Source of the DNA: Methanobacteriota archaeon
GTDB lineage: Archaea > Thermoplasmatota > E2 > DHVEG-1
Length of the DNA stretch: 24,000 bases
Assembly (NCBI GenBank): GCA_963769885.1
Contig: CAVYNH010000006.1
Coordinates: forward strand, 409,791-433,790
Direction: 5' to 3'
Of the stretch, positions 1-24,000 are shown in pieces (the stretch's first letter is position 1; every line of letters begins with the position of its first letter). Under the pieces are notes generated by a model. The model searched no databases. It was not told the DNA's origin and worked only from the letters and a program-made list of their open reading frames with translations. The position numbers and the translations under genes were made by a program.

Positions 1-956
1 ATTTTTTGGATAGAGGCGCTACGGGCTTTGATGGAGACGATGCCGGCGTAGAGGCCGTCTTGGATGGAAGGGTCCGGGATGGTGATGGGTTTGAGGATGG
101 TGTGGTGGGCGTCGACCGTGATTCGTTTTGTGGTGGTGGGGCTGTAGTAGTAGGTGTAGATGTTGTCTGAGGCGATTTCTCCTTGCGGGCTGGTGCAGGT
201 GAGGCGGACGCGCGCCATGAGGGTGCCGGTGACGAGGATGGTTTTTTTGATGTCGGTGGCGAAGGCGGTGCCGATGTAGTCCGGGGTTCCTGGGACGCCG
301 TAGCGGAGGTCGAAGTCGGCGAGTTGGTCGAGGTTGTAGGTTTCGACGGCGGTGGAGTTGGGTTTGAATTTGATGGCGGCCAGCGCGATGGGGTTGCCGA
401 GGAGCTGGCCTTTTTGGACAACGGTGTAGACGACGTAGCCGTCTTGGCGGATGCCGTAGTAGTCGAAGTCGATGGTCTGGCCTGGGATGGGTTCGTAGAA
501 GTAGTGGGTGTCTTCGACGGTGATGTGGGTGGGGTAGTCGGCGGGGGGTGTTTCGGTGGGGTTGTAGAGGACGTAGAATTTGGTGTTGCTGGTGGTGGGT
601 TCTGGGATGAGGAAGACGAGGCTGCAGGCGCTGACGTGGGTGTCGTCGGTGTGTTGGAGGTCGTAGGCCTGAGAGTCGATTTCTTGGGGTCCGGTGCCGT
701 CGTCGGCGGCGACGCGGATGGAGGTGTGGGTGTCGTTGATGGCCCAGCAGGGGTTGGTGAAGGTGACGCGGATGTCGATGGGCTGGTCGGCGGCGGTGGC
801 GTTGCCGGTGTCGATGGGGAGGGTGAGGAGCTGTTTGTACTGGAGGGTTTCAATGGCGGTGTGCGGTGAGGGTGGCTGTGCGGTAAGTGTACTTGTCGTA
901 AGGAGAAGGAGCGTAAAGGCTATCCAGAGCCGTCCTCGCGGTGATGCTGACGCCAT
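1..956 (-). CDS. Secreted protein of unknown function, N-terminal 318 codons (3' end lies beyond the window start)
   Basis: Absent from the supplied ORF track because it runs off the window edge. ATG at 956-954 is preceded by GAGGTG, and the frame stays open to position 1. The product starts MASASPRGRLWIAFTLLLLTTSTLTAQPPSP, which looks like a signal peptide. Codon usage is NNC-rich like neighbouring genes. The + strand ORF 183..869 is its Gly/Val-rich antisense shadow. Confidence 0.65.
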   Translation of the reverse strand, partial: MASASPRGRLWIAFTLLLLTTSTLTAQPPSPHTAIETLQYKQLLTLPIDTGNATAADQPIDIRVTFTNPCWAINDTHTSIRVAADDGTGPQEIDSQAYDLQHTDDTHVSACSLVFLIPEPTTSNTKFYVLYNPTETPPADYPTHITVEDTHYFYEPIPGQTIDFDYYGIRQDGYVVYTVVQKGQLLGNPIALAAIKFKPNSTAVETYNLDQLADFDLRYGVPGTPDYIGTAFATDIKKTILVTGTLMARVRLTCTSPQGEIASDNIYTYYYSPTTTKRITVDAHHTILKPITIPDPSIQDGLYAGIVSIKARSASIQK

Positions 957-980
957 GTCCACCTCTAAAAGTATTATTGC

Positions 981-995
981 TATATTTATATAATT
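981..995 (-). promoter_or_regulatory. TATA-like box upstream of the 1..956 gene
   Basis: On the minus strand this reads AATTATATAAATATA, about 25-40 nt upstream of the ATG at 956, in an AT-rich divergent intergenic region. Confidence 0.35.
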
Positions 996-1183
996 ATTCT
1001 CCTTTTTATCTAGTCCTCCCTTGGTTTTTTTTGCCCGCTCATCAAGAATGGGTGGAGCCAGGCATGCTTTCATTTTATGGACGCTCGAGCGGCTCCTGGT
1101 GCAAACGCCCCCGGCTCCACCAAGCCTGAGGATTAAAATACCTCGGACCCCTTCTTTCCCCAGACCGAGATAAAGGACCAGTC

Positions 1184-2146
1184 ATGCCCCAGAAAGACCC
1201 TGACCACCCCTACCTCAACGACCTCGACACCGTCGGCTTCACCCCGATTTTCATCCTCGGCCTGCACCGCAGCGGCACCAGCATCCTCTACAAGACCCTC
1301 ACCGCCACCGACCGCTTCAACCCCATCACCGCATACCACCTCATCCGCTACCACGAACTCCTCACCCATTTTCACACCCACACCACAGACCAGGCGAAGA
1401 CCGACCTCACCGCCCTCCTCCACGCCAAAGGACAGACCGACCGCGGCATCGACCGCCTCCAACTCACCGCCGACTTCCCCGAAGAATACGGTTTCCTCCT
1501 CGGCCACCAGACCATCCGTATGAACCTCACCCCCCGCACCCTCCTCCTCTTCACCACCCTCTGCAAGAAAATCCAGTACACCGCCCAGAACACCCGCCCC
1601 CTCCTCCTCAAAAACCCGTACGACTTCCCCAACTTCCGCTACCTCAAAGCCGCCTTCCCCACCGCCCGCTTCGTCTTCATCCACCGCCACCCCCTCAAGA
1701 CCCTCAGCTCCACCCTCAACGCCTGGCAGCACCTCGTCCGCACCAAAAACCCGTACACCGAACAACTCGCCCGACACTACCAACAATCCAGCGACAACCC
1801 ACTCCTCCACCTCCCGCTACGCACCGTCTTCCTTGACGCACCCGAGCTCGGCGCCGTCGCCCTCACCGCCACCGCCGCGAAGGCGACCCGCTACTACCTC
1901 ACCAACATCGCCAAACTCCCCGCACGCGACTACGTCTCCATCACCTACGAACAGCTCTGCAGCCGCCCACAGCAGACCCTCGACAAGATCCTCACCGCCC
2001 TCGGCGAGCCGCCGACCGACCTCGACGCCTCAACGCTCATCAGCCCCCGCGACGTCCCCATCGACCCCACCATCCAGAAGCTTGCCCCGTACATCAAGCG
2101 GGTCATGCGGCCGTACTGCGACGCCTTCGGCTACACCATCCCCTAA
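1184..2146 (+). CDS. Sulfotransferase family protein (PAPS-dependent type)
   Basis: 320 aa. LGLHRSGTSILYKTL matches the 5'-phosphosulfate-binding loop (xRSGTT/S). FIHRHPLKTLSS resembles the 3'-phosphate-binding RxxxxxxS element. No TM segments. Strongly C-rich NNC codon usage. Confidence 0.7.
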   Translation: MPQKDPDHPYLNDLDTVGFTPIFILGLHRSGTSILYKTLTATDRFNPITAYHLIRYHELLTHFHTHTTDQAKTDLTALLHAKGQTDRGIDRLQLTADFPEEYGFLLGHQTIRMNLTPRTLLLFTTLCKKIQYTAQNTRPLLLKNPYDFPNFRYLKAAFPTARFVFIHRHPLKTLSSTLNAWQHLVRTKNPYTEQLARHYQQSSDNPLLHLPLRTVFLDAPELGAVALTATAAKATRYYLTNIAKLPARDYVSITYEQLCSRPQQTLDKILTALGEPPTDLDASTLISPRDVPIDPTIQKLAPYIKRVMRPYCDAFGYTIP

Positions 2147-3297
2147 CTCGCCTTGAGGTCCGCCAGGTCTTTTTTCCGATACGTCTTCCCGCACCAGCGG
2201 ATCTCCCGCTTGACGCTGGAGACCACCGCGTTGTAGGCATACAAGAGGAACGCGATCGGCGCCAGCAGCCCGTACCAGATCCTGTACCTGAATTTCTCCG
2301 CTGGGTATCGCATCAGCCGCTGGAACGTCAGCAGCCCGATCCAGCCGTAGATTATCTCTAGGCCGATGGTCGCAAGGAAAAAGATGCCGAACACCGTGTC
2401 CCCCAATACGAACAGGACGGCATCCATGGCCAGGACCGCGGTCACAAACAACACGCCTAGGTAATAGATGATCCAGGCGGGGAGGCTGTACCAGCGGATC
2501 CAGGTGAGCTGCTGGCTGCCCCACTGGATGAAATTCCGAATGCTCGGCTCCGCTGGGCTTTCCGCCACGCACTGGGGGACGAACCGGATTTTGTATTTTG
2601 CCTTCTTCATCGCGTGCGTCAGGATGAGATCGTCGGAGAGGCCCTGCCGCCAGCGCGTGGCGATCCCCAGCTCCTGGAACAGAGATTTTCGCACGGCCGT
2701 GGATCCCCCCCAAGCGAAGGTCGTGATCTGATAGAACATGGCGCTGACCGTGGAGAGGCTCCAGGTGGAGATTAACGCGGATTTCAGGTTCGTCGCAAAG
2801 AACCAGCGGTAACCCGTGGAGGCACCGACCTTCGCATCGGTCAGCGGAGCGACGAGGTCGGTGAGCCAGTCTGGATGCGGCCGGATGTCAGAGTCGGCGA
2901 AGACGAGAATTTCGGCATCCGCACTGCGATCGATGCCCGTGAGTAGCGCCGAGATTTTCCCGCTCGTCCCGGGGACCGGCACGGCGTACTCCAGGCGGGT
3001 ATGCGCGAGGCCCTGGATGACCTCGCTGACAACCGGGAACGCGGGGTCCTGCGGGGAATCCAAGACGAACAGGAGGCGATAGGCAGGGTACTTCTGACGG
3101 CAGAGCGCCTGAAGATTCTCCCGAAGACCTTCGCCTTTCCCTTTGCAGGGGACAATGACGCAGACCGACGGCGTCGTAGTCGGTCTCTCCTCCCTGCGTG
3201 TCTGGAAGTACCCGATGATGAAGAGGAACGGCAGCGCCCCGATGCCGATGATCACGAGGCTCGCCAGGGAGAGCAGGAAGACGGTGACCGGCTCCAT
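2143..3297 (-). CDS. Membrane glycosyltransferase family 2 (ceramide-glucosyltransferase-like / Glyco_transf_21-like)
   Basis: 384 aa. Has an N-terminal TM helix, VIVPCKG...FVLDS, FADSD (DxD), WGGSTAVRK, LSDDL, a QQLTWIRW (QxxRW-like) motif and several C-terminal TM helices. Its stop overlaps the sulfotransferase stop in a shared CTAA. Confidence 0.75.
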   Translation of the reverse strand: MEPVTVFLLSLASLVIIGIGALPFLFIIGYFQTRREERPTTTPSVCVIVPCKGKGEGLRENLQALCRQKYPAYRLLFVLDSPQDPAFPVVSEVIQGLAHTRLEYAVPVPGTSGKISALLTGIDRSADAEILVFADSDIRPHPDWLTDLVAPLTDAKVGASTGYRWFFATNLKSALISTWSLSTVSAMFYQITTFAWGGSTAVRKSLFQELGIATRWRQGLSDDLILTHAMKKAKYKIRFVPQCVAESPAEPSIRNFIQWGSQQLTWIRWYSLPAWIIYYLGVLFVTAVLAMDAVLFVLGDTVFGIFFLATIGLEIIYGWIGLLTFQRLMRYPAEKFRYRIWYGLLAPIAFLLYAYNAVVSSVKREIRWCGKTYRKKDLADLKAS

Positions 3298-3406
3298 AGA
3301 GGTCTAGATGAAGGAAACGCCGACAACCCTTAAAAGATGTTCTCATCACAAAACCCAGGAAAAGAAATAATTCAGATTCCCTCACCGTCTCCCCCCAGTC
3401 CAATCC

Positions 3407-3413
3407 TTATATA
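3407..3413 (+). promoter_or_regulatory. TATA box (TTATATA) for the SPOUT methyltransferase gene; implies a leaderless or short-leader mRNA
   Basis: CCTTATATAC lies only 6-12 nt upstream of the ATG at 3419 and about 30 nt upstream of the ATG at 3440. That spacing favours 3440 (MSTLLAVEH...) as the real start on a near-leaderless transcript. Confidence 0.45.
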
Positions 3414-3418
3414 CCCAG

Positions 3419-4036
3419 ATGCCGTACACGCCTCCCATCATGAGCACCCTCCTGGCCGTCGAGCATTGCGAACGCGGCCTCTCCGACTGGCTCTTCCTAG
3501 AATACCGGCACGCAGCCACGATCTGGGAACCCGACGTTCTCTTCACCAACGTCAGCAGCAAGACAGCCACAACGAAGCTCCTCACCATCGGCCACGTGAC
3601 ACGCGAGCCCGTCAACACCCACCTCAAAGGCCGCCGCTGCATCATCCTCGACCCCAAAGCCACCACACCCCTGTCAACCCGGGACTTCACCAGGCTGCAT
3701 GCCATCGTCATCGGCGGGATCCTCGGCTACAAGAACCCGCGCGGCCGCACCAAGACCCTGATCAGCGACCACTCATCCTTCGAGACCCGCCACATCGGCC
3801 CCATCCAACTCACCATCGACGGCGCCGCCCTCGTCGCCAAGGCCGTCGCCCTCGGCCTGCGCATCAAAGACATCGAGATCGCCTACGAAGTCGAAATCAC
3901 CCACGACGCCGTCCACTCCACCATCCTGCCCTTCGGCTACCCGATCCTGGAGGGAAAACCCATCATCACCCCTGGCCTCATCGAGTACCTGATGAGGAAA
4001 GACGAACAAAAAAACAAAGAAAAGAAGTCGACTTAA
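3419..4036 (+). CDS. SPOUT-class SAM-dependent methyltransferase, DUF431 (PF04252)-like
   Basis: LAVEHCE...WLFLEYRH, CIILDPKA and the AIVIGGILGYKNPRGRT motif are collinear with the DUF431 predicted RNA methyltransferase family (GGILGD..PRxRT). The start is more likely ATG 3440 than 3419 (see TATA box). ORF 3337..4281 in another frame is a composition artefact. Confidence 0.7.
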   Translation: MPYTPPIMSTLLAVEHCERGLSDWLFLEYRHAATIWEPDVLFTNVSSKTATTKLLTIGHVTREPVNTHLKGRRCIILDPKATTPLSTRDFTRLHAIVIGGILGYKNPRGRTKTLISDHSSFETRHIGPIQLTIDGAALVAKAVALGLRIKDIEIAYEVEITHDAVHSTILPFGYPILEGKPIITPGLIEYLMRKDEQKNKEKKST

Positions 4037-4287
4037 TTCTCCTTGACCGCAAGGTTCGTCGCGACCGGACCGCGCTTCGACTCCGAAACGCAGTACGTCA
4101 CGCGATCCCCCTTCTCAAGAAAAATCGTCCAAAACGGCAGCACGGATTTATGGACGAACACCCGCTGACCATCCTCACCGCGGATGAACCCAAAACCCTT
4201 CCGCACATCATAAAACGACACAATACCTTGAATACTCTCTTTCAAACACTCACTTTCTTCATTGAATTTTCTTTTCTGTGACATCAT
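4033..4287 (-). CDS. Cold-shock domain (CSD) nucleic-acid-binding protein
   Basis: RNP1 KGFGFI and RNP2 VFVH motifs in an OB-fold-sized protein. The ATG start gives 84 aa with an unusual 14-aa N-terminal extension. An in-frame TTG at 4245 would give a canonical 70-aa CSP (MKESIQGIVSFYDVRKGFGFI). GTTTAAAG lies just upstream of the ATG on the minus strand. Confidence 0.75.
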   Translation of the reverse strand: MMSQKRKFNEESECLKESIQGIVSFYDVRKGFGFIRGEDGQRVFVHKSVLPFWTIFLEKGDRVTYCVSESKRGPVATNLAVKEN

Positions 4288-4442
4288 AAGAAATCACTTT
4301 AAACTGGAAAACGGAACATCAGGACTCGTTGTTCACCAAAAGGCTTGGCGACAAAACGCCGACTCTGTTTTCAACGGTTTGACCACCCCATACCATAAAC
4401 GTCTTTAAATACTTTTCTCACCGTACCCACCGACCAACCACA

Positions 4443-4919
4443 ATGCCACCCGCCACCACCGGCACCATCAGAAGAGCCACCCCTGCGGACCTCCCCGCCA
4501 TCATCGCACTCGAACAAGCCTGCTTCCCCGGCCCCCTCGCCTACTCACGTAGACAACTCCGTTACCTCCTCACCCACGCCCACAGCACCGTCCTCGTCGA
4601 AACCACAGACACCACGCTGCGCGGCTTCGTCATCATCCTCTACCGCCACGGATCAAAAACCGCCGGCATCGAAACCATCAACGTCGACCCCGCCCACCAA
4701 CGCCGCGGCATCGCCCGCCAGCTCCTCACCGCCGCCGAGACCGAGATGCACGCCCACGGCGTCCGTCGCATCCGCCTCGAAGTCTCCACACAAAACGCCC
4801 CCGCCCTCGCCCTCTACTACCAGGCAGGCTACCGAAAGACCGAGCTCCTCCCCAACTACTACATCTTCTCCCATCACGGTTCGCGCGACGCCTTCCGCAT
4901 GGTCAAAGACCTCACCTGA
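4443..4919 (+). CDS. rimI: GNAT family N-acetyltransferase, RimI-like
   Basis: 158 aa. Acetyl-CoA motif A is VDPAHQRRGIARQLL. LEVSTQNAPALALYYQAGY and a C-terminal YY....RDAFRM are typical of RimI/Ard1-type enzymes. A TTTAAATA box lies about 33 nt upstream. Confidence 0.75.
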   Translation: MPPATTGTIRRATPADLPAIIALEQACFPGPLAYSRRQLRYLLTHAHSTVLVETTDTTLRGFVIILYRHGSKTAGIETINVDPAHQRRGIARQLLTAAETEMHAHGVRRIRLEVSTQNAPALALYYQAGYRKTELLPNYYIFSHHGSRDAFRMVKDLT

Positions 4920-6331
4920 TTCGAAGACACCCACTCCTCGTTCTGCAGCACACAATACCCCCTCGTGTGTGCCTCCATAATCGACAGCAGCCCCTCACGG
5001 AACTGCTCCGGCACATACGACATGCTGCATGTCGGCCCTTCATGAATCCGCTCCACATGGTCCAAGCTGTGGACTTCCGTACCACCGCCACCCTGCATCA
5101 GGAAAAACGACTGCTCCTTCTCATCCTGATCCAGCTTCAGGTTCGCTGACTTCACCCGCATAGGGAACAATTCAATGGCCTCATCCGTATAATTGATGAG
5201 CCGCGGGTCAGTCTTATTGGCTGAGAGGAACAACAGAACCCCCATGCACTTCGAACACGTACCACACGGCATGACCTTCTCCCCTTCGATGTGGCACGAG
5301 TGGCATGACCGCTGGTTCTTCGCCAGCTCCGGGTACCGCGAAAACAAGATCCGCTCGACAACCAACCCAGTCACGGACCGCAGCGCGGACCACTGGACCA
5401 GCCCCGACATCCGCCGGTTATACCACAGGTTCATCCGCTGGTCGAACGCGACATCCTGATCATAGACGCCGTAATAGTCAACAAGCCCCTTGAATGACGG
5501 CGTTATCCGTAAATCGTCGAACTCGCTGCCGAGGAGGAGATTGCCGATCCGGCGCTCAGAGAATAGAGGCATCAAAGAGAAGACATAGTATGGAAAGATG
5601 CACATGCGAATGGGATAGACATCCGCCCGGATCTGCCGATGATCCTTCCTGATGAACGGCAGATGGTCAAGCATGAAAAGGTAGAATCGGTCCACGTTCG
5701 TCCACACCCGATTGGTGTTCGGCTCGGTCTGCTGATGGTACCGATAGGCAGTCATCGCGGTGCGCCAATGTCCGCCGCTCTCATTGACGTAGAGCGGGTG
5801 GACGTCCATGCCCATTTCCTTGAGCATCCCGTAGGTCGTGAGGCTCTCTTTACCGCCGCTGGATAAGATTCCGCAGCGCTTGTTATTAAAATTTTGTTGC
5901 AGAGGGGCATCCATGCTGATGCTCGCAGGGATGAACTGGGACTTTGGTTGCGCCGCCGCAGCGGTGGCCTCCTCCTCAGGAACTTGGTAGCCAGGAAGCA
6001 GGTAGTCTGCCGTGGGTTTCACCAGCTCATGGATGTAGGTCTCGCTGCAGAAGACCGTGTTGAGGTCGTTGAGCAGACCGAGGTCTGCCGAGCTGACGGG
6101 GAATTGTAACGTGAACCGCTCGGTGAACAGGCCGTAGTTGAGCAACGGCATGCAGAAGGCGAGACGGAGCAGGGGGAGATGCTCAGGGGCAATCGGGTCC
6201 TGGTACTGCAGGATCAGATCGAAGGAAAATTTCTGTTTGTTTCTGGTCAGCAGGGTCACGGTCGTGGTCGCGGTGTTCTTGACGAGGTCTGGCTCTGAAA
6301 GGGAGATGTCTTTGAAGCAGACAAAGTCCAT
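4874..6331 (-). CDS. PP-loop (adenine nucleotide alpha-hydrolase) superfamily protein with C-terminal Cys cluster; function unknown
   Basis: 485 aa. An N-terminal domain of about 150 aa is unassigned. CGILSSGGKESL is a variant of the SGGxDS PP-loop. CHSCH-x9-CGTCSKC (CxxC-x9-CxxCxxC) resembles the QueC-type zinc site. Its ATG lies 2 nt after the upstream DUF1611 stop. Its 3' tail overlaps rimI by 46 nt, convergently. Confidence 0.6.
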   Translation of the reverse strand: MDFVCFKDISLSEPDLVKNTATTTVTLLTRNKQKFSFDLILQYQDPIAPEHLPLLRLAFCMPLLNYGLFTERFTLQFPVSSADLGLLNDLNTVFCSETYIHELVKPTADYLLPGYQVPEEEATAAAAQPKSQFIPASISMDAPLQQNFNNKRCGILSSGGKESLTTYGMLKEMGMDVHPLYVNESGGHWRTAMTAYRYHQQTEPNTNRVWTNVDRFYLFMLDHLPFIRKDHRQIRADVYPIRMCIFPYYVFSLMPLFSERRIGNLLLGSEFDDLRITPSFKGLVDYYGVYDQDVAFDQRMNLWYNRRMSGLVQWSALRSVTGLVVERILFSRYPELAKNQRSCHSCHIEGEKVMPCGTCSKCMGVLLFLSANKTDPRLINYTDEAIELFPMRVKSANLKLDQDEKEQSFFLMQGGGGTEVHSLDHVERIHEGPTCSMSYVPEQFREGLLSIMEAHTRGYCVLQNEEWVSSNQVRSLTMRKASREP

Positions 6332-6333
6332 AG

Positions 6334-7407: not shown

Positions 7408-7444
7408 TTTTTTTGTTGGAAAAGTCCTCAGGCTTTTGTTTTTT

Positions 7445-15182: not shown

Positions 15183-15192
15183 ATCTATTACA

Positions 15193-15852: not shown

Positions 15853-15907
15853 TACTACAAGAAAAAACCTAAATTCAATCCCGTTTTCTATTGTTTACGT
15901 CAAGTCG

Positions 15908-15968
15908 ACATGCGTTTATACCGTGTTAATGCTTCTGATTTCTAAGGATATGTTTTTATTGAATTTTT
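15908..15968 (+). repeat. Right copy of the imperfect direct repeat flanking the AT-rich ORF
   Basis: See the left copy at 15141-15182. It has the same orientation and lies about 767 bp away. Confidence 0.6.
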
Positions 15969-16180
15969 TGAACTAATGATGCTATACCTAAGTGATAAGA
16001 ACAAGAATGACCTGCGGGTGATGATTACGCTGAAGAAATCAGGAATCATTCTCTCCGAGAAAATACGGCTTCTTTGGCATTTTTTTTCATTCGGAAGTAC
16101 CGGAGCCTTCCCTCCTAAGAGAAAACCACCTCGGTGGAAGCGCTTAAAAACCCCCGCGAAGTATCCACCACCGACCCCCC

Positions 16181-16588: not shown

Positions 16589-16592
16589 AAAA

Positions 16593-17309: not shown

Positions 17310-18655
17310 GGGACCGCGGCCTCCGCCAACAAATACGACCGTGCCTCACCCACCGTAAACAATGACCCAGTCACACAGATCAGATCCCTCTCCCCCGCCA
17401 TCCCCATCGCCGTCCCCAACGCCTCCGGAACCGACTCGCATACCGTGATCTCCTTATCCCGCGAGAACTCCCGCGCCAGCTCCAACAGCTTCCCCGGCGC
17501 GCACGCCCGCGGGTTCAACGACCGCGTCAACACCACCCGCCACGCCACCGGCACGATGATCTCCAGCATCCGCCGCATATCCTTATCATGGCAGATCCCC
17601 ACCACCAGCACCACCCGACGCCCCGGGAAATCCGCCTCCAACGTCCGCCGCAGCATCCCCATCCCATGCGGATTATGCGCCCCATCCAACACGATCGCCG
17701 GCTCATCCGCCACCACCTCCATCCGCCCTGGATGAAACGCCCGATCGACTCCCGCCACGATCGCCTGATCCGACACGAACACCCCCAGCAGCTGCAGCTG
17801 CTCCACCGCCGCCAACGCCACCGCGATATTCTCCCCCTGATACAGCCCCAGCAGCCGCGTGCTCACCTCATACTCCCGCAGACTCCCCAGAATCCGGAAC
17901 ACCTGCGACGACCGCGTCCGAGACAACCGAGACCACTGACCGTCACCGACAACAACAAGCGGCGCTAACCGCTTAGCCGCCACCTCCCTGATCACCTCCA
18001 GCGCCTCACCGGACGCCCCAGTCACCACCGGCACCCCCGACTTGATGATCCCCGCCTTCTCCACCGCGATCTTCTTCGCCGTATCCCCCAGAATCTCCGT
18101 ATGATCAAGCGCGATGTTCGTAATCACCGACACCACCGGCACCACCACGTTCGTCGCATCAAACCGACCGCCCAGCCCCACCTCCACCACCGCATACTCC
18201 ACCTGCTTCTCCTTGAAATACAGGAACGCGAGCGCCGTCGTGATCTCAAAGAACGTCGGCGGCTCCCCCTCCGCAATCATCCCCTCGACAACCGGCCGCA
18301 CCCGATCGACCAGCCGATCGATATCCTCACGAGAAATCGGGACGCCATTAATCACAATCCGCTCCGAGAACCACTGCAGATGCGGCGAGATATACACCCC
18401 CACCCGGTACCCCCCCTGCCCCAACACACTCGCCACATACTGGCACACCGACCCCTTCCCGTTCGTCCCCGCCACATGCACAACCCGCAGCCCCTGCTGC
18501 GGATTCCCTAACCGCTGCAGCAAAAGAGAGATACGCTCTAGGCCGAACTTCCAGCCGTACTTATCGAAGCTGTACAACCACCGGATTCCGGGACTCAGCT
18601 CAGTAGCCGTCAGAATACAACACCCCAGGATAACACTCGGTACTTCGTCAACCAC
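17306..18655 (-). CDS. folC: Folylpolyglutamate synthase / dihydrofolate synthase (Mur ligase family)
   Basis: 449 aa. HVAGTNGKGS is the P-loop. ISPHL, EVGLGGRFDATNV, ITNIALDHTEILG, GAHNPHG and a GSLF C-terminus are FolC hallmarks. The track start is a GTG at 18655. An in-frame TTG giving LYSFDKYGWKFGLERI would fit typical FolC N-termini better. The coding strand is G-rich, unlike most neighbours. Confidence 0.85.
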   Translation of the reverse strand: MVDEVPSVILGCCILTATELSPGIRWLYSFDKYGWKFGLERISLLLQRLGNPQQGLRVVHVAGTNGKGSVCQYVASVLGQGGYRVGVYISPHLQWFSERIVINGVPISREDIDRLVDRVRPVVEGMIAEGEPPTFFEITTALAFLYFKEKQVEYAVVEVGLGGRFDATNVVVPVVSVITNIALDHTEILGDTAKKIAVEKAGIIKSGVPVVTGASGEALEVIREVAAKRLAPLVVVGDGQWSRLSRTRSSQVFRILGSLREYEVSTRLLGLYQGENIAVALAAVEQLQLLGVFVSDQAIVAGVDRAFHPGRMEVVADEPAIVLDGAHNPHGMGMLRRTLEADFPGRRVVLVVGICHDKDMRRMLEIIVPVAWRVVLTRSLNPRACAPGKLLELAREFSRDKEITVCESVPEALGTAMGMAGERDLICVTGSLFTVGEARSYLLAEAAVP

Positions 18656-19273
18656 GAGTCCCCCGGCAAAATCCGTACCTCCCTACCCTGGATTAGTAAT
18701 CGCCCCTGCGCAAACAACTCGATCGTCCGCGGGAGGATCTGATGCTCCACCTCCAAGATCCGCTTCGCCAACGTATCCCTGGTATCACCCGGTAGCACCT
18801 TCACCGCCGCCTGCAGAATAATCGGCCCATGATCCATCTCCTCATCCATGAAATGCGTCGTACACCCCGAGATCTTCACTCCATACGCCAACGCATCCCC
18901 CTGTCCGTTCACCCCCCTGAACGACGGCAGCAGCGCCGGATGGATGTTGATCAACCGGCCTTTCCACTTCCGCACGAACTCCGGGGTCATAATCCGCATG
19001 TAGCCCGCACCGACCACCAAATCAACCTTATGTTTCTCGAGGGTCGTAGTAATCTGGGTCTCATGCAGCTCTCGGTTCTTCGCGACACATTCGATGCAAT
19101 ACCAGGGGATTTTATGCTTCTCCGCACGCTTCAGCGCCTGCGCCTCCGCCCGGTCACTGATCACGAGTACCAACCGCGGCGTTGATTTTATGCTGCTCCG
19201 AGGCATCGATGATGCTCTGCAGATCGGTCCCAGACCCTGAGGCGAGGACGCCGACGCGAAGAATCTTCCCCAT
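18610..19273 (-). pseudogene. purN: Phosphoribosylglycinamide formyltransferase (PurN) interrupted by a 1-nt frameshift
   Basis: ATG at 19273 encodes MGKILRVGVLASGSGTDLQSIIDASEQHKINA, then runs out of frame to a TGA at 19156-19154. The remainder (RLVLVISDRAE...GYMRIMTPEF...LINIHPALLPSFRG...GCTTHFMDEEMDHGPIILQ) is in the +1 frame. Removing one G/C in GCCGCGG (19174-19180) gives an intact 220-aa PurN; the 664-nt span is 663 plus 1. Confidence 0.7.
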
Positions 19274-19319
19274 ATGATTCCCTCAATCCTGCACTGCGAC
19301 CGAACCACGTGCGATGTTT

Positions 19320-20435
19320 TCAATGTTCCGGTACCGAGAAGATATGCTTCTGAATAGTCTCCCAGGGGGCATCCGTCTTGAATCCCGTCGGCGTGAAATG
19401 AGTGCGCGATGCAAAAAATCCAGCCTGACGGAGAGTCTCAAGAACATGGTCGAGAGGAGGCATCGGCGATTTCAATATCGACGCGATTCCCTCAACAGTG
19501 TAGAAAAACGGAGGTGCCTCCGCTTCTTCCTCAAGGGCGGTGATGAGTTTCCAGAGGCTTGGTCGGGAGCCGAGCGTCTTGGTAGGGAGGAGCATGCGGA
19601 CTACCTGGATCATCGTCTTATTCTGCAGCGACCCCATCCACAAGGGGCCGACATCATGGCCCAAAGGAGTCGCGAGAGGGATAGTCGTCATAGGGATTGT
19701 GACGTAGTTCGATATGGATTCCTTCGCGGCCCGTTTCCCACACGGGACTTGGACATAGGCGCGAAAGTAATGATCGGCAGCGTAGCAAAGCAGCGGCTTG
19801 ATGCCTTTGTCGTACTTGGCCGCCTCGCGGGCAATGATGCCGAGGAGGATGCGCAGGCCGGTCTCGCGCATACACGCGCCATGGGAGGGCCAGGCGGCGT
19901 AGCGGCGGCGGCAGACCTCGGGGAAGACGCCGCAGAGCGGCGCGGTGTCCGTGGCGGTGACGGCGAGCAATCCATTGGGCGCGATGCTACGCATGGCCGA
20001 GTCGAGAAAGGAGATTGGTGAGCCGAATGGGTCGATGTCTATGGAGTGGTAGCGGCTCTGGGAGAGGAGGGCGTTGAGGTCGGCGTGACAGGCGGTGGCG
20101 TTGTGAAGGTTGGCGCGCTGGATGTTGTCTTGGATGAGCTGGTGAGCAGCGTCTTTGGCGTCGTTAATAGTGACGTGGATGTCTCCTTCGAGTTCGTTGG
20201 CGAGCCGCAGGCCGCGGACGCCGCTGGCGGCGAGGCCGTCGAGGATGCGGGTGGGCTTCTGTCGTGTGTTGAGGAACCATTGGTTGGCGAGGATGGAGAG
20301 GTCGCGGCTCTGCTCCATGGAGGGGTTGTAGAAGGGCTGGGTGGTGCGGGCTGCCGGGCCTTTTTTCACTGTTTTCGGAGCCGCGGTGAGGGCGGTGGTG
20401 GTTCCTTCGGTGATGGTGTAGCGGGCTTGGGTCAT
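19320..20435 (-). CDS. trm1: tRNA (guanine26-N2)-dimethyltransferase Trm1
   Basis: 371 aa. FYNPSMEQSRDLSI, ILDGLAASGVRGLRLANE (SAM site), DIDPFGSP and a C-terminal domain with FYTVEGIAS....P match archaeal/eukaryal TRM1. Confidence 0.85.
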   Translation of the reverse strand: MTQARYTITEGTTTALTAAPKTVKKGPAARTTQPFYNPSMEQSRDLSILANQWFLNTRQKPTRILDGLAASGVRGLRLANELEGDIHVTINDAKDAAHQLIQDNIQRANLHNATACHADLNALLSQSRYHSIDIDPFGSPISFLDSAMRSIAPNGLLAVTATDTAPLCGVFPEVCRRRYAAWPSHGACMRETGLRILLGIIAREAAKYDKGIKPLLCYAADHYFRAYVQVPCGKRAAKESISNYVTIPMTTIPLATPLGHDVGPLWMGSLQNKTMIQVVRMLLPTKTLGSRPSLWKLITALEEEAEAPPFFYTVEGIASILKSPMPPLDHVLETLRQAGFFASRTHFTPTGFKTDAPWETIQKHIFSVPEH

Positions 20436-20458
20436 GAGAAAAGGGAGGTGGGAATGGG

Positions 20459-21019
20459 TCAGTAGAGTGGCGGGAGTTTTTCGGCCATGATTTTTTCGAT
20501 TTTGTAGGGGAGGAGGTTGCGGTTGACGGGGGTGACTTCGAGGATGCGGATGTCGTCGCGGCGGCGGATGTCTTGGAGGAGCGGGGTGCGTGATTTCTTG
20601 TGGAGGGTCACCATGATGGGTTTGTCGCTGTCGAGGGCTTCGATGACGACGTTGCAGAAGGGTTCGGAGAGCATCTCCATTTTGCCGATTTCGTCGATGA
20701 TGATGATGTCGATGGCGTCTTCGTTGATGGCGCGTTCGATGGCTTTGACGCCGATGCGTTCGAGGTTGAAGAGGTCGACGCCGTATTTGCCGACCTTGTC
20801 TTTGCAGTCCATGTCGAGTTTGGCGAAGACGGCTTTCTCCTTGGTCATCCAGTCTGCGACGTAGAAGCCGACCCGTTTCTTTTTCTCGACGATAGGCTCG
20901 GAGATCATCCCTTCGACGGTGTAGCCGCTCTTCTCGATCTTCTCAATGATCTTGATGAGGGTCTCAGTCTTGCCGACGCTGGGCATCCCGGTGATCCCTA
21001 TCTTGGGGATATCGTCCAT
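20459..21019 (-). CDS. Nucleoside-triphosphatase, THEP1/MJ1559 type
   Basis: 186 aa. Walker A is IGITGMPSVGKTE and Walker B is IIIIDEIGKMEL. GFYV and VTLH segments are as in THEP1-family NTPases. Confidence 0.8.
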   Translation of the reverse strand: MDDIPKIGITGMPSVGKTETLIKIIEKIEKSGYTVEGMISEPIVEKKKRVGFYVADWMTKEKAVFAKLDMDCKDKVGKYGVDLFNLERIGVKAIERAINEDAIDIIIIDEIGKMEMLSEPFCNVVIEALDSDKPIMVTLHKKSRTPLLQDIRRRDDIRILEVTPVNRNLLPYKIEKIMAEKLPPLY

Positions 21020-21081
21020 AGCTCGTAGAGGTAATGCGATTTGAGTTTAGAAGGCTTTGGTCTACGAGGAAAACAGGCGGT

Positions 21082-21762
21082 TTAGGCCGGTTTTTTCTTT
21101 ATAAAGAAAGGGCCGGCGAGGACGTAGACGAGGATCATGCCTAAGAGCAGGAGCGGGCCGGCGATAAAACCCAGGAGGGTGAGGGGGAGGGAGGCGAGGA
21201 TGACGAGGCTCGCGACCACGGTTGTGTATCTCCCCAGTTTTGGGTACGGCAACGAGGCGACCTGCATCAGCCCCAAGAGGATGAGGACGGCGAAGATAAC
21301 GAATGCAGGGAACCAGGAGGGTCCGAGGATCGCCAGGCAAACGAGGATGATCGTGCTCGCGGAGGCCGGCAGGCCGAGGAACGCCTCTTTCTCCTTCAGC
21401 AGATGGAAGCTGGAGAGCCGGGTCACGGCGCAGAACAGGAAAAACAGCATCCCGGCCAGCAAGAGTCCGAGGATGAGCGGCTGCAGGCCTGTGGCATAGA
21501 TGCCGTAGACGAAGACCGCCGGCGCCACGGTCAGGGAGACGAAATCGGCCATCGCCTCGAGGTAGTCGCCGATCTGTCCGCCGCCGAGCCGACGGGCGAC
21601 GACGCCGTCCAGGCCGTCCGCCAGCAGCGCCAGCAGGATCAATGAGAACGCCAAGGGGATCTGACCAGAGAAGACGGCGAGAATCGCCAGCAGCCCGAAG
21701 CCTGCGTTCAGGATCGAGAGTCCGTCGGCGACCGTCAGGAATCTAAGCATGGTGCTGGGCAA
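21082..21762 (-). CDS. pssA: CDP-alcohol phosphatidyltransferase; archaetidylserine synthase-like
   Basis: 226 aa polytopic membrane protein. DGLDGVVARRLGGGQIGDYLEAMAD is a variant of DG-x2-AR-x8-G-x3-D-x3-D, with one residue fewer and a D-to-E change. It overlaps the upstream decarboxylase gene by 20 nt. Confidence 0.75.
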   Translation of the reverse strand: MPSTMLRFLTVADGLSILNAGFGLLAILAVFSGQIPLAFSLILLALLADGLDGVVARRLGGGQIGDYLEAMADFVSLTVAPAVFVYGIYATGLQPLILGLLLAGMLFFLFCAVTRLSSFHLLKEKEAFLGLPASASTIILVCLAILGPSWFPAFVIFAVLILLGLMQVASLPYPKLGRYTTVVASLVILASLPLTLLGFIAGPLLLLGMILVYVLAGPFFIKKKPA

Positions 21763-22390
21763 GGGTATCCTCTCCTGCTTTCACCCGGTCATGGAGCCGC
21801 ACTGCCAGGGACGCGACCATAGCCTCTGGGAGGTACACATCCACGCGGGACCCCAGGCGGATCAGCCCGATGCGGCTGCCTCTCGCGACCACGTCGCCGG
21901 GCTTGATGTAGGGGACGATGCGGCGGGCGACCGTCCCCGCAATCTGGACGACCTTCACTGTCCCGCGGGGCGTTGTGAGATGGATGGTGACGCGCTCGTT
22001 GCGTTCCGAGTCCTTGGTGAACGCGGGCAGATGGCCGCCAGGGGCATGCTCCACCTTGGTGACAGTCCCATCGACCGGGCTTCGGTTCACATGAACGTTA
22101 TGGATGTTCATGAAGGTTTTCACCCAGTAGCAGGGGCCGACGTCCGGGTCGTCGATGGTGGCGATGCCGGTGATGACGCCGTCGGCGCAGGCAACGATGC
22201 CCACCCCTATTTTTCGCTCCGGGTCGCGGAAGAAGATGACGAGCAGGATGATTCCGGCGAGGCCGAGGAGGGCGGCGATGAGGAAGACGATGTGGAGGAG
22301 GCCGTCGGAGGCCAGGGTGCCGACATCGAAGACGATGGTGGCCATTCCGACCCCGATGATCCAGAGGGGGCATCCTCGGGCGAGCCTCAC
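21743..22390 (-). CDS. psd: Phosphatidylserine (archaetidylserine) decarboxylase, short archaeal type
   Basis: 215 aa with N-terminal TM helices. FMNIHNVHVNRSPVDG and IAGTVARRI are present. The self-cleavage-type motif is IRLGSRVDVYLP (LGS-T/R). It starts at a GTG and overlaps the archaeosortase stop in a shared GTGA. Confidence 0.75.
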   Translation of the reverse strand: MRLARGCPLWIIGVGMATIVFDVGTLASDGLLHIVFLIAALLGLAGIILLVIFFRDPERKIGVGIVACADGVITGIATIDDPDVGPCYWVKTFMNIHNVHVNRSPVDGTVTKVEHAPGGHLPAFTKDSERNERVTIHLTTPRGTVKVVQIAGTVARRIVPYIKPGDVVARGSRIGLIRLGSRVDVYLPEAMVASLAVRLHDRVKAGEDTLAQHHA

Positions 22391-23358
22391 CGTTTCCCTC
22401 CGAGGAATTGTTCGAGGGGACCTTTGCGTTTGGGGAGGTTGATGACGCCCATGATGTCGTCGTAGAGCTCCGGGACGATGTGGAAGGTGAGGAAGAGGAT
22501 GGCAATGAGGGCGAGCAGGGAGCCGGCTTTGCCGATGACGTTGTGCGCCATTTCAAAGGAGATACCGCTGCCGGTCATGAGGACGACGCCGGTGTTGCGG
22601 ACGAGGTTGAGGAGGTAGACGGGGACGACGGTGGCGAGCAGCGCGACGGTTTTCCGTTTCGGCTTGATCTTGGGCATGGCGCCGAGCATCCCGACGAAGA
22701 GGAGGAGGGATTGGACGGCGGTGCAGGCGAAGATGATGTGGATGGCGGTGTCATTGTAGGTGATGGTGGCCCCGGTCTGGGTGACGGTGAAACCGAGGAG
22801 GCGGAGCATCCAGACGGTCTGGTCGGCGACAATGAGAATGAGACCGTCGGAGAGGAACGGCAGGAGCTGTTCTATGGAGAAGTAGATGAGGCCGGCAAGG
22901 CAGGTGGCGCCGGCGATCCAGTTGAGGGCGGCGGGGTACTCCCGGCGTTTGGTAGAGAGCCATTCGTGGTAGGCGAGGTAGATAAGGACGTAGATGCCGA
23001 TGACGCAGATGGCGGCGTTGATGATGTCGCCGCCTTCTGAGAAGTAGAGGAGGTTGGTGTAGGTGGTCCAGAAGAGGGCGAAGAGGATCCAGCCGGTCAT
23101 CTTGAATCGGCTGCCGCGCTGCTGTTGCTTGTCGAGGGTGCCGATGCCGAGGAGGATGAGGCCGGCGAAGAGGGGGATGAGGTTGACCCAGTGGTACGGC
23201 GGCAGCGGATACGGGAAGAGGATGAAGTTGATGAGGATCATGGCTGTGGGGCCGCCGAAGAACCAGAGGAGGATCCGGGAATCCTTTGTGTCGGGTGTGG
23301 TGGATGCCATTGCTTGAAGATCAATTGGGCTGTATGGGGTGAGTCTACAAAAACCCAT
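22387..23358 (-). CDS. artA: Archaeosortase (ArtA-like exosortase/archaeosortase family transpeptidase)
   Basis: 323 aa polytopic membrane protein. HIIFACTAVQSLLLFVGML carries the conserved catalytic Cys context. YLLNLVRNTGVVLM carries the conserved Arg. EMAHNVIGKAGSLL carries the conserved His. Synteny with psd and pssA supports the call. The alternative start is ATG 23310 (MASTTPD...). The subfamily assignment is tentative. Confidence 0.7.
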   Translation of the reverse strand: MGFCRLTPYSPIDLQAMASTTPDTKDSRILLWFFGGPTAMILINFILFPYPLPPYHWVNLIPLFAGLILLGIGTLDKQQQRGSRFKMTGWILFALFWTTYTNLLYFSEGGDIINAAICVIGIYVLIYLAYHEWLSTKRREYPAALNWIAGATCLAGLIYFSIEQLLPFLSDGLILIVADQTVWMLRLLGFTVTQTGATITYNDTAIHIIFACTAVQSLLLFVGMLGAMPKIKPKRKTVALLATVVPVYLLNLVRNTGVVLMTGSGISFEMAHNVIGKAGSLLALIAILFLTFHIVPELYDDIMGVINLPKRKGPLEQFLGGKR

Positions 23359-23394
23359 TGGTACCGACCGCGAGCGTGTGGTGCGGGTTCTGCG

Positions 23395-24000
23395 TTATTT
23401 GACGTTGAGGACGAAGATGAGGAAGACGAAGCCGGTGGCGATCTTGCTGGCGGTGGCGCCTTCGGCGCAGGCCGCGGAGAAGCTGATGATGACCCTGCCG
23501 ATGCCGATGATCCGGTTGCAGGTCATGGTGTCCTGGGCGCCGGGGAGGAGGACGCCGGGGAATCCGGTGCTCATCGTCCCTGAGAGGATGAGACCGTTGG
23601 AGAGGATCATGACCCAGGTGACGTTGGTGGCGGTGCCCTGGCCGACGTTGCGGATGACGGCCGTGAGGTACGGGCCGCCGGTGACGTTCTGGATCAGGAG
23701 GACGGGAGGATGCTGGATTTCCGGGGTGGAGAGGCTGAGGTCGTCGTAGTAGGCAGCGGTGGCGTTGATGCTGCGGAGATCAACGGCTTGAAGGGTGAGG
23801 GGGCCGCCGCCGGTGTTGTTGCATTGGTTGCTATAGTGTTTTTGGACGAGGAGTTCGTTGTCGTAGTAGACCGTGAACCAGTCGCTGGTGAGGTTTGCCT
23901 CGGTGCGGAGTTCGACCCAGCGGCCTTTTTTGAGGGGGAGGGTCATAGCGTCGTTCTCGGATTCGACCATGTTGGTGGCGGCGTCCGCGCTGATCGTGAC
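23395..24000 (-). CDS. Secreted multi-domain protein, C-terminal 201 codons (5' end beyond the window end); LamG/jelly-roll-like plus CARDB-like domain
   Basis: The frame stays open from 24000 with no stop upstream of the track's Met at 23970. WVELRTEANLTSDWFTVYYDNELL...AAYYDDLSL resembles the end of a concanavalin/LamG-like domain. It is followed by IRNVGQGTATNVTWVM...GLILSG...LLPGAQ...IGIGRVII and a hydrophobic C-terminus ATGFVFLIFVLNVK. It ends 36 nt upstream of the archaeosortase gene. Confidence 0.65.
   Translation of the reverse strand, partial: VTISADAATNMVESENDAMTLPLKKGRWVELRTEANLTSDWFTVYYDNELLVQKHYSNQCNNTGGGPLTLQAVDLRSINATAAYYDDLSLSTPEIQHPPVLLIQNVTGGPYLTAVIRNVGQGTATNVTWVMILSNGLILSGTMSTGFPGVLLPGAQDTMTCNRIIGIGRVIISFSAACAEGATASKIATGFVFLIFVLNVK

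Follow-up and report, generated by a model that had tools for sequence, protein, structure and literature searches.

In vertebrate mitochondria the H strand is G+T-rich and the L strand A+C-rich, and the ND6 gene is mirrored. In Borrelia burgdorferi the codon usages of the leading and the lagging strand are mirrored within one genome. Here we describe a strand bias of mitochondrial strength, arranged in blocks of a few kb, in an archaeon and its close relatives, which suggests a mutation process of unusual strength that acts locally, is probably linked to transcription and has not been described for archaea.

In a comparison that draws in part on PMC2779903, vertebrate mitochondria share with this archaeon the amino-versus-keto type of skew, a similar amplitude (about 10:1 C:G at silent sites), a minority of genes on the other strand with reverse-complement codon usage, and a measurable push on amino-acid composition. 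However, mitochondria have one genome-wide polarity, attributed to strand-displacement replication, whereas in the archaeon the polarity flips every 1–5 kb and the sharp boundaries lie at starts and ends of transcription units. Borrelia likewise has two mirror-image codon usages set by physical strand (a case mentioned in PMC10030826), but there the sign is determined by the replichore, with a single switch at the origin, as opposed to many switches within 24 kb.

In classical transcription-associated asymmetry, as found in E. coli and human, the non-template strand becomes G+T-rich via C-to-T deamination and transcription-coupled repair (PMC10030826). The archaeal skew resembles it in following the direction of the unit and in affecting both silent sites and non-coding transcribed DNA; its polarity, however, is reversed, the non-template strand being A+C-rich, the change between sister lineages is mainly from G to C (on the other strand, from C to G) instead of C to T, and the amplitude appears much larger. 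Published intragenic skew outside archaea also runs from a C-biased 5′ end to a G-biased 3′ end (as in the archaeal PP-loop, trm1 and glnS genes), affects four-fold sites and amino-acid usage, and reaches promoters and 3′ regions. Unlike in that description, most archaeal genes are C/A-rich up to the stop codon, reversal at the 3′ end is seen where a convergent unit adjoins, whole genes are mirrored, and the amplitude appears far larger. In Haloferax, likewise a high-GC archaeon, third-position and non-coding GC skew is anticorrelated with gene strand, both being C-biased on the coding-strand side as here (Paravel et al. 2026, PMC12999951). That paper deals with correlations of cumulative curves at the chromosome scale and reports no mirrored genes, kb-scale domains or comparable amplitude.

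Results

The window, i.e. the whole stretch of 24,000 nt analysed, comes from an uncultured Thermoplasmatota archaeon of a narrow high-GC clade; about 31 kb of the source genome was examined, together with regions of relatives, mostly orthologous. Skew was expressed as keto-amino skew, KM = (G+T−A−C)/n, and as KM3, the same measure at third codon positions of the coding strand, given 5′ to 3′. On the + strand, GC skew in 500-nt windows ranged from −0.57 to +0.49. The standard deviation of KM in non-overlapping 500-nt windows was 0.250, far above that of shuffled sequences (0.044, maximum 0.059), and the sign of KM flipped at least seven times within 24 kb. The alternating strand-composition domains proposed in a first-pass annotation are thus real, and its seven hand counts of 60-nt lines were all reproduced exactly (7/7).

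Most of the blocks it had delimited were recovered, namely the G+T-rich ones at 1–1000 (KM +0.38, z 12), 5600–10600 (+0.27, z 19) and 13100–15000 (+0.33, z 14) and the C+A-rich one at 16130–19700 (−0.26, z −15). Block 19900–24000 is G+T-rich overall (KM +0.17, z 11) but heterogeneous, with strong skew at 20011–20750 and 22401–24000 and a value of about 0 at 20751–22400, and block 1130–5500 is C+A-rich overall (−0.23, z −15) but neutral at 2081–3310. The stretch 10950–13000, claimed as C+A-rich, proved essentially neutral (KM −0.05, z −2). At about 21000–23500 the AT component of the skew is absent; membrane proteins encoded there have T-rich second codon positions. Pfam confirmed the underlying gene calls, and the long antisense open reading frames, which have no Pfam family, are by-products.

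In 100-nt bins, gene orientation accounted for little of the KM variance (R2 = 0.23) in comparison with physical continuity, i.e. the bins lying 300 nt to the left and to the right (R2 = 0.76). This supports the view that composition goes with the physical strand more than with the single gene. As had been claimed, the domains cross oppositely oriented genes and change sign inside genes, as seen from KM3 of gene parts.

The leftmost domain (1–1100) is G+T-rich on the + strand (KM +0.37) and holds a − strand gene with a C/A-rich coding strand, which has its start codon at 956 and extends beyond the left edge; for its orthologue in another assembly, L086 (629+ aa), KM3 lies between −0.60 and −0.90. 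A C+A-rich domain (1101–2080, KM −0.41) lies over the + strand sulfotransferase gene (1184–2146; KM3 −0.74, −0.78, −0.59), with a sharp onset in the divergent intergenic region and an abrupt end near the stop codon, after which a T6 run is found at 2170. The neutral stretch 2081–3310 contains the − strand GT2 glycosyltransferase gene (2143–3297), which has a GC3 of 0.83 yet a KM3 of about 0. The next C+A-rich domain (3311–5490, KM −0.27) covers the + strand SFM1-like (3419–4036) and rimI (4443–4919) genes, an embedded, mirrored − strand CSD gene (4033–4287, KM3 +0.44) and, likewise mirrored, the last 600 nt of the − strand PP-loop gene (4874–6331). The latter gene is conserved, with full-length homologues, and overlaps the convergent rimI by 46 nt at its 3′ end. 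Its third positions pass from C/A-rich to G/T-rich (KM3 −0.26, −0.07, +0.09, +0.38, +0.55), so that the sign change noticed there is genuine and gradual; the same gradient recurs in L087, L088 and L090–L094.

From 6231 to 10370 the + strand is G+T-rich (KM +0.31), intergenic DNA included. The − strand genes DUF1611 (6334–7407), PALP (7445–8479) and dcd (9189–9722) have C/A-rich coding strands, and the + strand Zn-ribbon (8700–8834) and RAM (8959–9192) genes are mirrored, as is the 5′ half of the + strand PKD gene (9861–10943), a lineage-specific insertion. The 3′ half of PKD lies in a near-neutral stretch (10371–13110) together with − strand tRNA-Gln(UUG) (11080–11150), a bacterial-type glnS (11182–12864) and tRNA-Gln(CUG) (12905–12977). 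Two − strand hypothetical genes with C/A-rich coding strands (13131–13751 and 13815–14762) form the domain 13111–15090, G+T-rich on the + strand (KM +0.33), which stops abruptly beside − strand T-runs at 13094 and 13006. It is followed by a low-GC (0.36), unskewed island (15091–16110) with the + strand gene hyp151 (15255–15710), at the position of which relatives hold different low-GC genes.

At 16110 a C+A-rich domain (16111–19030, KM −0.32) sets in within about 100 nt. It includes hypA (16181–16588) and the gene for a ParA/Mrp-type ATPase (16623–17309), both on the + strand with C/A-rich coding strands, and the convergent, fully mirrored − strand genes folC (17306–18655) and purN (18610–19323). 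In a gradual transition zone (19031–20010) lie the 5′ portion of purN and the last 700 nt of trm1 (19320–20435, − strand); within trm1, too, the reported sign change was found (KM3 −0.63, −0.57, +0.03, +0.12). The remainder (20011–24000) is a co-oriented − strand string of the 5′ part of trm1, THEP1, pssA, psd, artA and hyp191, with coding strands that are C/A-rich, strongly in the 5′ part of trm1, THEP1, artA and hyp191 but only weakly in the pssA and psd genes.

The strongly skewed units, eight in number and distributed over both strands, have C/A-rich coding strands without exception (8/8), and every fully mirrored gene is convergent with, downstream of, or embedded in a strong unit of the opposite strand. 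The skew begins abruptly at promoter regions, weakens 5′ to 3′ and continues past the stop codon: at the unit starts at 1100 and 16110 the switch takes about 100–400 nt, the unit end at 13110 being equally sharp, and in the convergent zones 4500–6400 and 18300–20000 the change is spread over 1.7–1.9 kb. Convergent gene pairs number six, and in five of these the 3′ ends overlap and leave no space for a terminator, which suggests that the spill-over would be due to transcriptional read-through; stop-codon overlaps of 4 nt are seen for sulfotransferase/GT2, SFM1/CSD, RAM/dcd and ParA/folC (31 in relatives for the last). The T-runs just past stop codons at 2170 and 13094/13006 coincide with abrupt ends of skew. 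The C/A skew starts 40–100 nt upstream of TATA-like boxes, and the divergent intergenic regions 8480–8699 and 9723–9860 are skewed. The 5′ half of PKD (9861–10370) and the dcd–PKD intergenic region are G/T-rich on the + strand, and no leftward unit that would explain this is annotated upstream. The absence of T-runs from C/A-rich DNA is partly circular as evidence for read-through.

At four-fold sites the C/A-class genes, which as previously stated are the majority, contain.08 A,.79 C,.08 G and.04 T, and the mirrored genes.06 A,.10 C,.73 G and.11 T. The share of C at two-fold pyrimidine sites is.94 and.39, respectively, and that of A at two-fold purine sites.67 and.13. The mirrored set consists of folC, purN and the CSD, Zn-ribbon and RAM genes, as listed earlier; glnS, also listed, is near-neutral and, like the PP-loop gene and trm1, mirrored at its 3′ end only. 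In comparison with about 113 outgroup homologues each, protein composition is shifted in folC (z = −5.1) and oppositely in DUF1611 (z = +4.3), and in the PP-loop protein the C-terminal half is displaced (z = −3.4) and the N-terminal half is not (z = +0.6). Since one tRNA pool could not select for opposite usages, and since proteins are shifted in opposite directions with mirror symmetry, the skew points to mutation rather than codon selection. Coding-strand G gives way to C at four-fold sites and to A at two-fold purine sites, independently of sequence context; T is replaced by C, its depletion being weaker than that of G.

L001 and L086, assembled independently from the same population, align collinearly with the window at 99.93–99.96% identity over 1–9098 and 13756–24000, covering the switch points at about 1050, 5500, 15000–16130 and 19800; a few indel discrepancies with other assemblies were seen. 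Relatives at 75–88% identity share both the synteny and the mirrored genes, with KM3 of +0.30 to +0.49 for CSD (mirrored in three lineages), +0.33 for RAM, +0.50 to +0.76 for the 3′ end of the PP-loop gene, and positive values for folC and purN. Identity to the sister lineage (L002) is roughly uniform along the window (76–82%). Relative to it, dcd has shifted to C/A, with synonymous differences of 50:0 in that direction, and the overlapping antisense RAM gene to G/T; similarly, hypA and ParA have shifted to C/A and the antisense folC, purN and trm1 to G/T. As these shifts agree on the physical strand, evolutionary change is itself physically continuous. Transversions from G to C (C to G on the other strand) are the commonest class.

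The trait is confined to the high-GC clade. Excess RMS KM is 0.23–0.31 in clade loci and 0.00–0.10 in 47 loci of the outgroup, the more distant Thermoplasmatota, and KM3 of PALP, DUF1611 and rimI orthologues is −0.49 to −0.83 in the clade as against −0.11 to +0.12 in the outgroup (49–66 loci of identical gene order). The order and orientation PALP–DUF1611–PP-loop–rimI are kept in 49–75 outgroup loci without the skew. The trait coincides with a rise of GC3 from about 0.28 to about 0.75.

Discussion

The bias arises by mutation, is specific to the clade, runs continuously along the physical DNA and is labile in evolution. Of the three causes considered in the first-pass annotation, the one that agrees with the evidence is an unusual local process of strand-asymmetric mutation or repair, and the flipping is indeed too frequent for replication skew. 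The accompanying statement that transcription-coupled bias alone does not explain the pattern was overstated: with uniform unit polarity and mirrored genes lying downstream or embedded, a unit model with read-through leaves little to explain beyond the 5′ half of PKD. From this geometry we infer, with a probability of roughly 0.6, a transcription-unit-linked asymmetric mutation pressure that strips G and T from the non-template strand. In the narrow high-GC clade such a pressure would have arisen with extreme strength, strand specificity and local polarity, starting sharply at promoters, running along the unit on the non-template strand and reading through overlapping convergent gene ends into downstream DNA, so that antisense genes in downstream or embedded zones would acquire reverse-complement codon usage. 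Net transcription direction is the presumed driver, and the weakly skewed GT2, glnS, PKD and pssA genes may have weak or bidirectional transcription, or may be recent acquisitions.

The loss of G and T from the non-template strand runs counter to all established transcription-associated mechanisms (PMC10030826), and its polarity is also the reverse of classical replication bias. No known pathway can be named for it, and G-to-C as the largest class is not predicted by simple deamination. The skew of the 5′ half of PKD, which the status of PKD as a lineage-specific insertion may or may not explain, and the onset of skew upstream of TATA-like boxes speak against the unit model. So does the CSD (cold-shock domain) gene, which might be expected to be well expressed, yet is mirrored.

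A strand-specific mutation or repair process could instead be tied to the physical strand independently of transcription, the agreement with gene orientation being secondary; repair-patch synthesis with a polarity, replication that depends on recombination or is primed locally and sets out from particular intergenic sites, or chromatin or topological domain effects would be its variants. Such a process would suit the greater share of bin variance explained by continuity (76% versus 23% for orientation), the passage of skew upstream of TATA-like boxes and through both divergent regions, and the mirrored PKD 5′ half, which lacks an explanatory upstream unit. We nevertheless consider it unlikely, since a process blind to transcription predicts that about half of the strong units are G/T-rich, whereas 8/8 share one polarity, and the sharp boundaries lie at unit starts and T-run terminators. 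Origins every 2–5 kb fit no process known to us.

Selection on RNA or DNA composition, instead of mutation, is more doubtful still. Transcripts poor in G and U would have been favoured as GC rose, for the sake of unstructured RNA, resistance to R-loops or absence of oligo-U termination signals, with mirrored genes as selected long overlapping 3′ UTRs or antisense RNAs. RNA made of C and A only cannot pair, G-C, A-U and G-U pairs all being impossible; moreover, the trait accompanies the GC3 rise and the bias peaks towards the 5′ parts of units. However, mirrored genes, with 73% G and 10% C at four-fold sites, would have maximally disfavoured mRNAs of their own, proteins are pushed off the family norm in both directions (z −5.1 and +4.3), non-coding spacers are skewed too, and G depletion ignores sequence context.

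Finally, a chimeric assembly, recent inversions in a genome with a strong replication skew, or recombination between oppositely polarised lineages, which the many sign changes and the few indel discrepancies might suggest, are already contradicted and hardly credible, as the independent assemblies are collinear across the covered switch points, gene order and orientation as well as mirrored genes are conserved in the clade (and the order in unskewed outgroup loci), genes in which the switches fall have conserved homologues over their full length, sequence identity to the sister lineage is roughly uniform, and transitions inside genes are gradual over 1.7–1.9 kb, unlike breakpoints.

Alternating strand composition

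The first-pass annotation had proposed, from sequence alone, that domains of opposite strand composition alternate along the window, and the alternation is confirmed here as highly non-random. The GC skew of the + strand, computed in 500-nt windows, swings repeatedly between +0.47 and -0.57, and the keto-amino skew (KM), calculated as (G+T-A-C)/n, has a standard deviation of 0.250 in non-overlapping 500-nt windows, against 0.044 (maximum 0.059) after shuffling. Penalised segmentation yielded 14 segments separated by 13 boundaries, with at least seven sign changes in 24 kb. The + strand is strongly G/T-rich at 1-1100, 6231-10370, 13111-15090, 20011-20750 and 22401-24000, strongly C/A-rich at 1101-2080, 3311-5490 and 16111-19030, and neutral or transitional at 2081-3310, 5491-6230, 10371-13110, 15091-16110, 19031-20010 and 20751-22400. 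All seven hand counts made earlier on 60-nt lines were exact and the blocks then outlined are right overall, except that the one at 10950-13000 is essentially neutral (z = -2) and those at 1130-5500 and 19900-24000 are heterogeneous. The claim that the domains belong to the physical strand has gained quantitative support: over 100-nt coding bins, gene orientation alone gives an R2 of 0.23, compared with 0.76 for the average of the neighbouring bins 300 nt away on both sides, the sampling ceiling being 0.88.

The pattern goes on beyond the right end of the window. At positions 1-5800 of L001, an independent assembly of the same population, an HTH regulator has a third-position GC skew (GC3 skew) of -0.79 and a corresponding AT3 skew of +0.90, and three co-oriented genes (peptidase C25, RibD_C and ThyX) are neutral.

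Silent-site composition of the genes

Pfam searches confirmed the sulfotransferase, the glycosyltransferase (GT2), the SFM1-like protein, rimI, DUF1611, the PALP enzyme, dcd, the PKD protein, the class Ic aminoacyl-tRNA synthetase, the ParA/NUBPL ATPase, folC, purN, trm1, THEP1, pssA and psd, and calls on independent contigs added hypA, the cold-shock domain (CSD) gene and the RAM (AsnC_trans_reg) gene. On their coding strands, at least 15 genes, lying on both strands, have GC3 skews down to -0.83 and AT3 skews up to +1.0. The pooled four-fold sites of these C/A-class genes contain A.08, C.79, G.08 and T.04, and those of folC, purN, CSD, the Zn-ribbon gene and RAM contain A.06, C.10, G.73 and T.11, so that silent usage in the latter, mirrored genes is very nearly the exact reverse complement of the former, at two-fold sites as well. 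The third-position GC and AT skews of folC are +0.68 and -0.76, and folC and purN are the mirror image of the C/A class. Third positions are near neutral in GT2, the PP-loop gene, PKD and glnS. Mis-called genes do not account for the mirroring, since Pfam confirms folC, purN, CSD and RAM; the RAM protein is moreover 100% identical to that of the sister lineage L002, with 17 synonymous differences.

In chunks of about 100 codons, third-position KM on the coding strand (KM3) rises monotonically from -0.26 to +0.55 within the PP-loop gene (4874-6331, - strand) and from -0.63 to +0.79 along the string trm1, purN, folC. On the + strand the profile passes smoothly over convergent gene ends, with rimI at -0.70 beside the PP-loop 3' end at -0.55, and ParA at -0.77 beside folC at -0.72. 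The long stop-free antisense ORFs were rightly regarded as by-products of a stop-poor composition, and they match no family. One of them, of 569 aa (11095-12804, + strand), runs antisense to all of glnS and has no Pfam match, and in the related locus L005 a gene caller placed a Pfam-less ORF on the opposite strand at the expected position of ParA.

Mutation and selection

Two mirror-image silent usages in one genome are not selectable by a single tRNA pool. Intergenic spacers carry the skew of their domain (8480-8699, +0.35; 9723-9860, +0.42; 16589-16622, -0.59), and protein composition, measured as Thr/Pro/His/Gln/Asn/Lys versus Gly/Val/Phe/Cys/Trp against about 113 outgroup homologues, is pushed in opposite directions in folC (z = -5.1) and DUF1611 (z = +4.3), and differs between the C-terminal (z = -3.4) and N-terminal (z = +0.6) halves of the PP-loop protein. 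No dependence of the G depletion on sequence context was found. Mirror symmetry, skewed spacers, opposite protein shifts and context independence together argue for mutation rather than selection.

Synonymous differences between the window and L002 run almost entirely in one direction. Of those in dcd (91% amino acid identity), 50 pair a G or T of L002 with a C or A of the window and 0 go the other way, the pairs (L002 base, then window base) being G-C 22, G-A 15 and T-C 13; folC is the mirror image, with C-G 47:2, C-T 21:8 and A-G 11:3. Expressed on the + strand as window minus L002, the changes fall into runs regardless of gene orientation: first RAM +0.26 and dcd +0.67; then hypA -0.22, ParA -0.14, folC -0.45, purN -0.29 and trm1 -0.24; and then pssA +0.63, psd +0.27 and artA +0.36. 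Outgroup polarisation shows a G/T-rich state of folC and purN as early as the common ancestor of the two lineages, and a drift back in L002 (G>C 30, T>C 20, G>A 10); for dcd it gave 5 versus 6 among very few passing sites.

Synteny and restriction to one clade

A metagenome scan with the PP-loop family recovered 80 loci. The window scores 0.248 in excess RMS KM, five loci at 78-85% identity (GC 0.53-0.59) score 0.226-0.313, and the 47 outgroup loci analysed (50-57% identical, GC 0.28-0.50) score only 0.00-0.10. In the same arrangement, PALP, DUF1611 and rimI have KM3 values of -0.73, -0.49 and -0.83 at a GC3 of about 0.75 in the clade, the narrow high-GC group around the window, against +0.12, +0.09 and -0.11 at a GC3 of about 0.28 in the outgroups. 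The gene order is therefore old, and the asymmetry, like the increase in GC, is derived in one clade. High GC by itself is not the explanation, since outgroup loci at GC 0.45-0.50 are unskewed and the neutral genes of the window have a GC3 of about 0.8.

Relatives at 75-88% identity, as well as 49-75 unskewed outgroup loci, keep the gene order and orientation of the window, which argues against recent inversions behind the local sign reversals; an inversion of folC and purN in particular is rejected, as their orientation is the same in all relatives. For glnS, identity to the window is 88% in L002, 77-78% in L004 and L088 and 78% in L087. The mirroring is repeated in relatives for CSD (+0.30 to +0.49), RAM (+0.33) and the PP-loop 3' end (+0.50 to +0.76), and folC and purN are likewise positive. 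A recombination mosaic or acquired islands would be expressed in blocks that differ among relatives; such differences are limited to the PKD gene and to the island of low GC at 15091-16110, every skewed and mirrored block is syntenic, and a mosaic is rejected. When folC was aligned against a genome collection, the matches listed were mostly bacterial, with the best archaeal one among them 51% identical and no close relatives, and exact-protein look-ups of dcd and the sulfotransferase found neither on record. Full-length homologues of the PP-loop protein and the others occur across Thermoplasmatota, and a foreign origin of folC and purN is rejected by their hundreds of Thermoplasmatota homologues and by conserved synteny. 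Chimeric assembly is rejected, because L001 (window 13756-24000, 99.96% identity) and L086 (window 1-9098, 99.93%), independent assemblies of the same population, are collinear with the window.

The island itself (GC 0.36) is unskewed, and the 151-aa product of the gene in it matches DUF7601 weakly; other low-GC genes stand at its position in L002 (Big_7) and L004 (PQQ beta-propeller). Insertions may vary at this site, or the DNA may be untranscribed and have kept its ancestral composition. The PKD-domain secreted protein (9861-10943, + strand) stands where all relatives have a Zn-ribbon/PspC gene, and the adjoining dcd acquired its extreme C/A bias after the split from the sister lineage.

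Probable association with transcription units

All eight strongly skewed units (the left gene, sulfotransferase, SFM1-rimI, PALP-DUF1611, dcd, hyp315-hyp206, hypA-ParA, and artA through trm1) are C/A-rich on their own coding strand. Composition switches within 100-400 nt at the unit starts at 1100 and 16110, with TATA-like boxes near the sharp starts, and equally sharply at the unit end at 13110; in convergent zones the change is spread over 1.7-1.9 kb. Stop codons overlap in five of the six convergent pairs, so that transcripts must end within the opposite gene. Domains end abruptly where a T run follows the stop codon (T6 at 2170 for the sulfotransferase; 13094 and 13006 for hyp206), and the two long C/A-rich domains contain no + strand T run of five or more, the stretches free of such runs reaching from 2170 to 6502 and from 16080 to 20361; this evidence is in part circular. 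Where a spacer lies between the convergent genes of a pair in relatives, both can remain C/A-rich (glnS/PspC, big1085/Sacchrp_dh), and overlapping pairs always include one mirrored partner.

A strand-asymmetric mutation pressure tied to transcription units and specific to the clade, with skew spilling over from the units into downstream antisense genes, would best account for this arrangement. The sign of the skew follows transcription in all eight strong units, yet orientation alone gives an R2 of 0.23, and the mirrored genes fit a rule of transcription direction only given read-through or antisense transcription. The units do not explain two exceptions, the dcd-PKD spacer and the 5' half of PKD, and CSD is mirrored even though genes of this type are often well expressed.

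Comparison with known asymmetries

Transcription-associated asymmetry in a general sense agrees with the mutational origin evident at four-fold sites, in spacers and in the opposite displacement of proteins, but its classical polarity is absent, the non-template strand having 79% C and 8% G at four-fold sites. In classical biases, deamination of single-stranded DNA enriches the non-template or leading strand in G+T (PMC10030826), and the polarity of the window is opposite. A gene skew from 5'-C to 3'-G in fungi is a near analogue (PMC3315797); a similar course is seen in the PP-loop gene, trm1 and glnS, but not in the sulfotransferase, DUF1611, PALP, ParA, artA and others, which are C/A-rich up to the stop codon. 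Vertebrate mitochondrial DNA resembles the window in amplitude and in its mirrored minority genes: mitochondrial-type asymmetry shares the extreme A+C versus G+T at silent sites and the mirrored usage on the opposite strand, but a uniform polarity across the genome, linked to how it replicates, is not seen in the window. Another near analogue is the anticorrelation at third positions in Haloferax (PMC12999951), in a paper which concludes that strand-specific mutational skews are largely missing from archaea. A literature search for the asymmetry of this clade found no description. Replication skew is rejected, as its sign is constant over hundreds of kb within a replichore and switches only at origin or terminus.

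Interpretation

We put the probability that this is a real, mutational, clade-specific phenomenon of the physical strand at about 0.9; the fuller statement, in which we infer a link to transcription, is probable to a lesser degree. More tentatively, this Thermoplasmatota clade may have an unusually strong, locally polarised, transcription-coupled mutational regime, with about 10:1 C:G at silent sites and a polarity that would reverse all known transcription- and replication-associated biases. If so, the genome sequence would itself be a record of net transcription direction, read-through and antisense transcription, and an undescribed archaeal pathway of strand-specific damage or repair would be implied. 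Candidates are the processing of G-specific lesions on the exposed non-template strand and error-prone resynthesis of the template strand, and such a pathway may also have driven the GC rise of the clade. The responsible pathway could come to light where the clade and unskewed sister lineages differ in their genes for repair and replication.

The clade would be a striking counter-example to the near-absence of strand-specific mutational skews in archaea that a recent survey concluded (PMC12999951), with an amplitude otherwise known from animal mitochondria. Should the link to transcription hold, it would offer a natural experiment in which transcription-associated mutagenesis runs with the polarity reversed, and operon limits, read-through and antisense transcription would be readable from DNA composition. 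The strength of the bias is sufficient for proteins of one genome, and even parts of a single protein, to be reshaped in opposite directions. Stop-free antisense ORFs mislead gene callers, and the bias will carry over into composition-based binning, the detection of horizontal transfer and phylogenetic work on these proteins.

Additional observations

Of the differences between the window and the independent assemblies of the same population (window 3086, 6205-6206, 8665, 17184, 18639 and 19171-19172), six out of eight lie within a few nt of GTAC, whereas just 2.7% of positions are as near to one. The frameshifts that result occur on both sides: purN is wrong in the window, and the C-terminus of ParA, the N-terminus of folC and GT2 are wrong in the other assemblies. 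A motif-linked sequencing error, perhaps at methylated GTAC, could be the source of these differences, or there could be a genuine hot spot for indels.

The PP-loop protein (485 aa) has an SGGKES (PP-loop-like) motif and conserved CHSCH and CGxCxKC cysteine motifs, and neither a Pfam family nor a PDB relative was found for it. Its conservation, at 50-85% identity, extends over Thermoplasmatota contigs numbering in the hundreds, and its gene invariably follows those for DUF1611 and a PALP enzyme.

Glutaminyl-tRNA synthetase is unusual in archaea. The window encodes a bacterial-type enzyme that matches E. coli GlnRS structures at E ~ 1e-208; its gene lies between tRNA-Gln genes with CUG and UUG anticodons, and this tRNA-Gln/glnS/tRNA-Gln arrangement (11080-12977, - strand) is retained in relatives within the clade.
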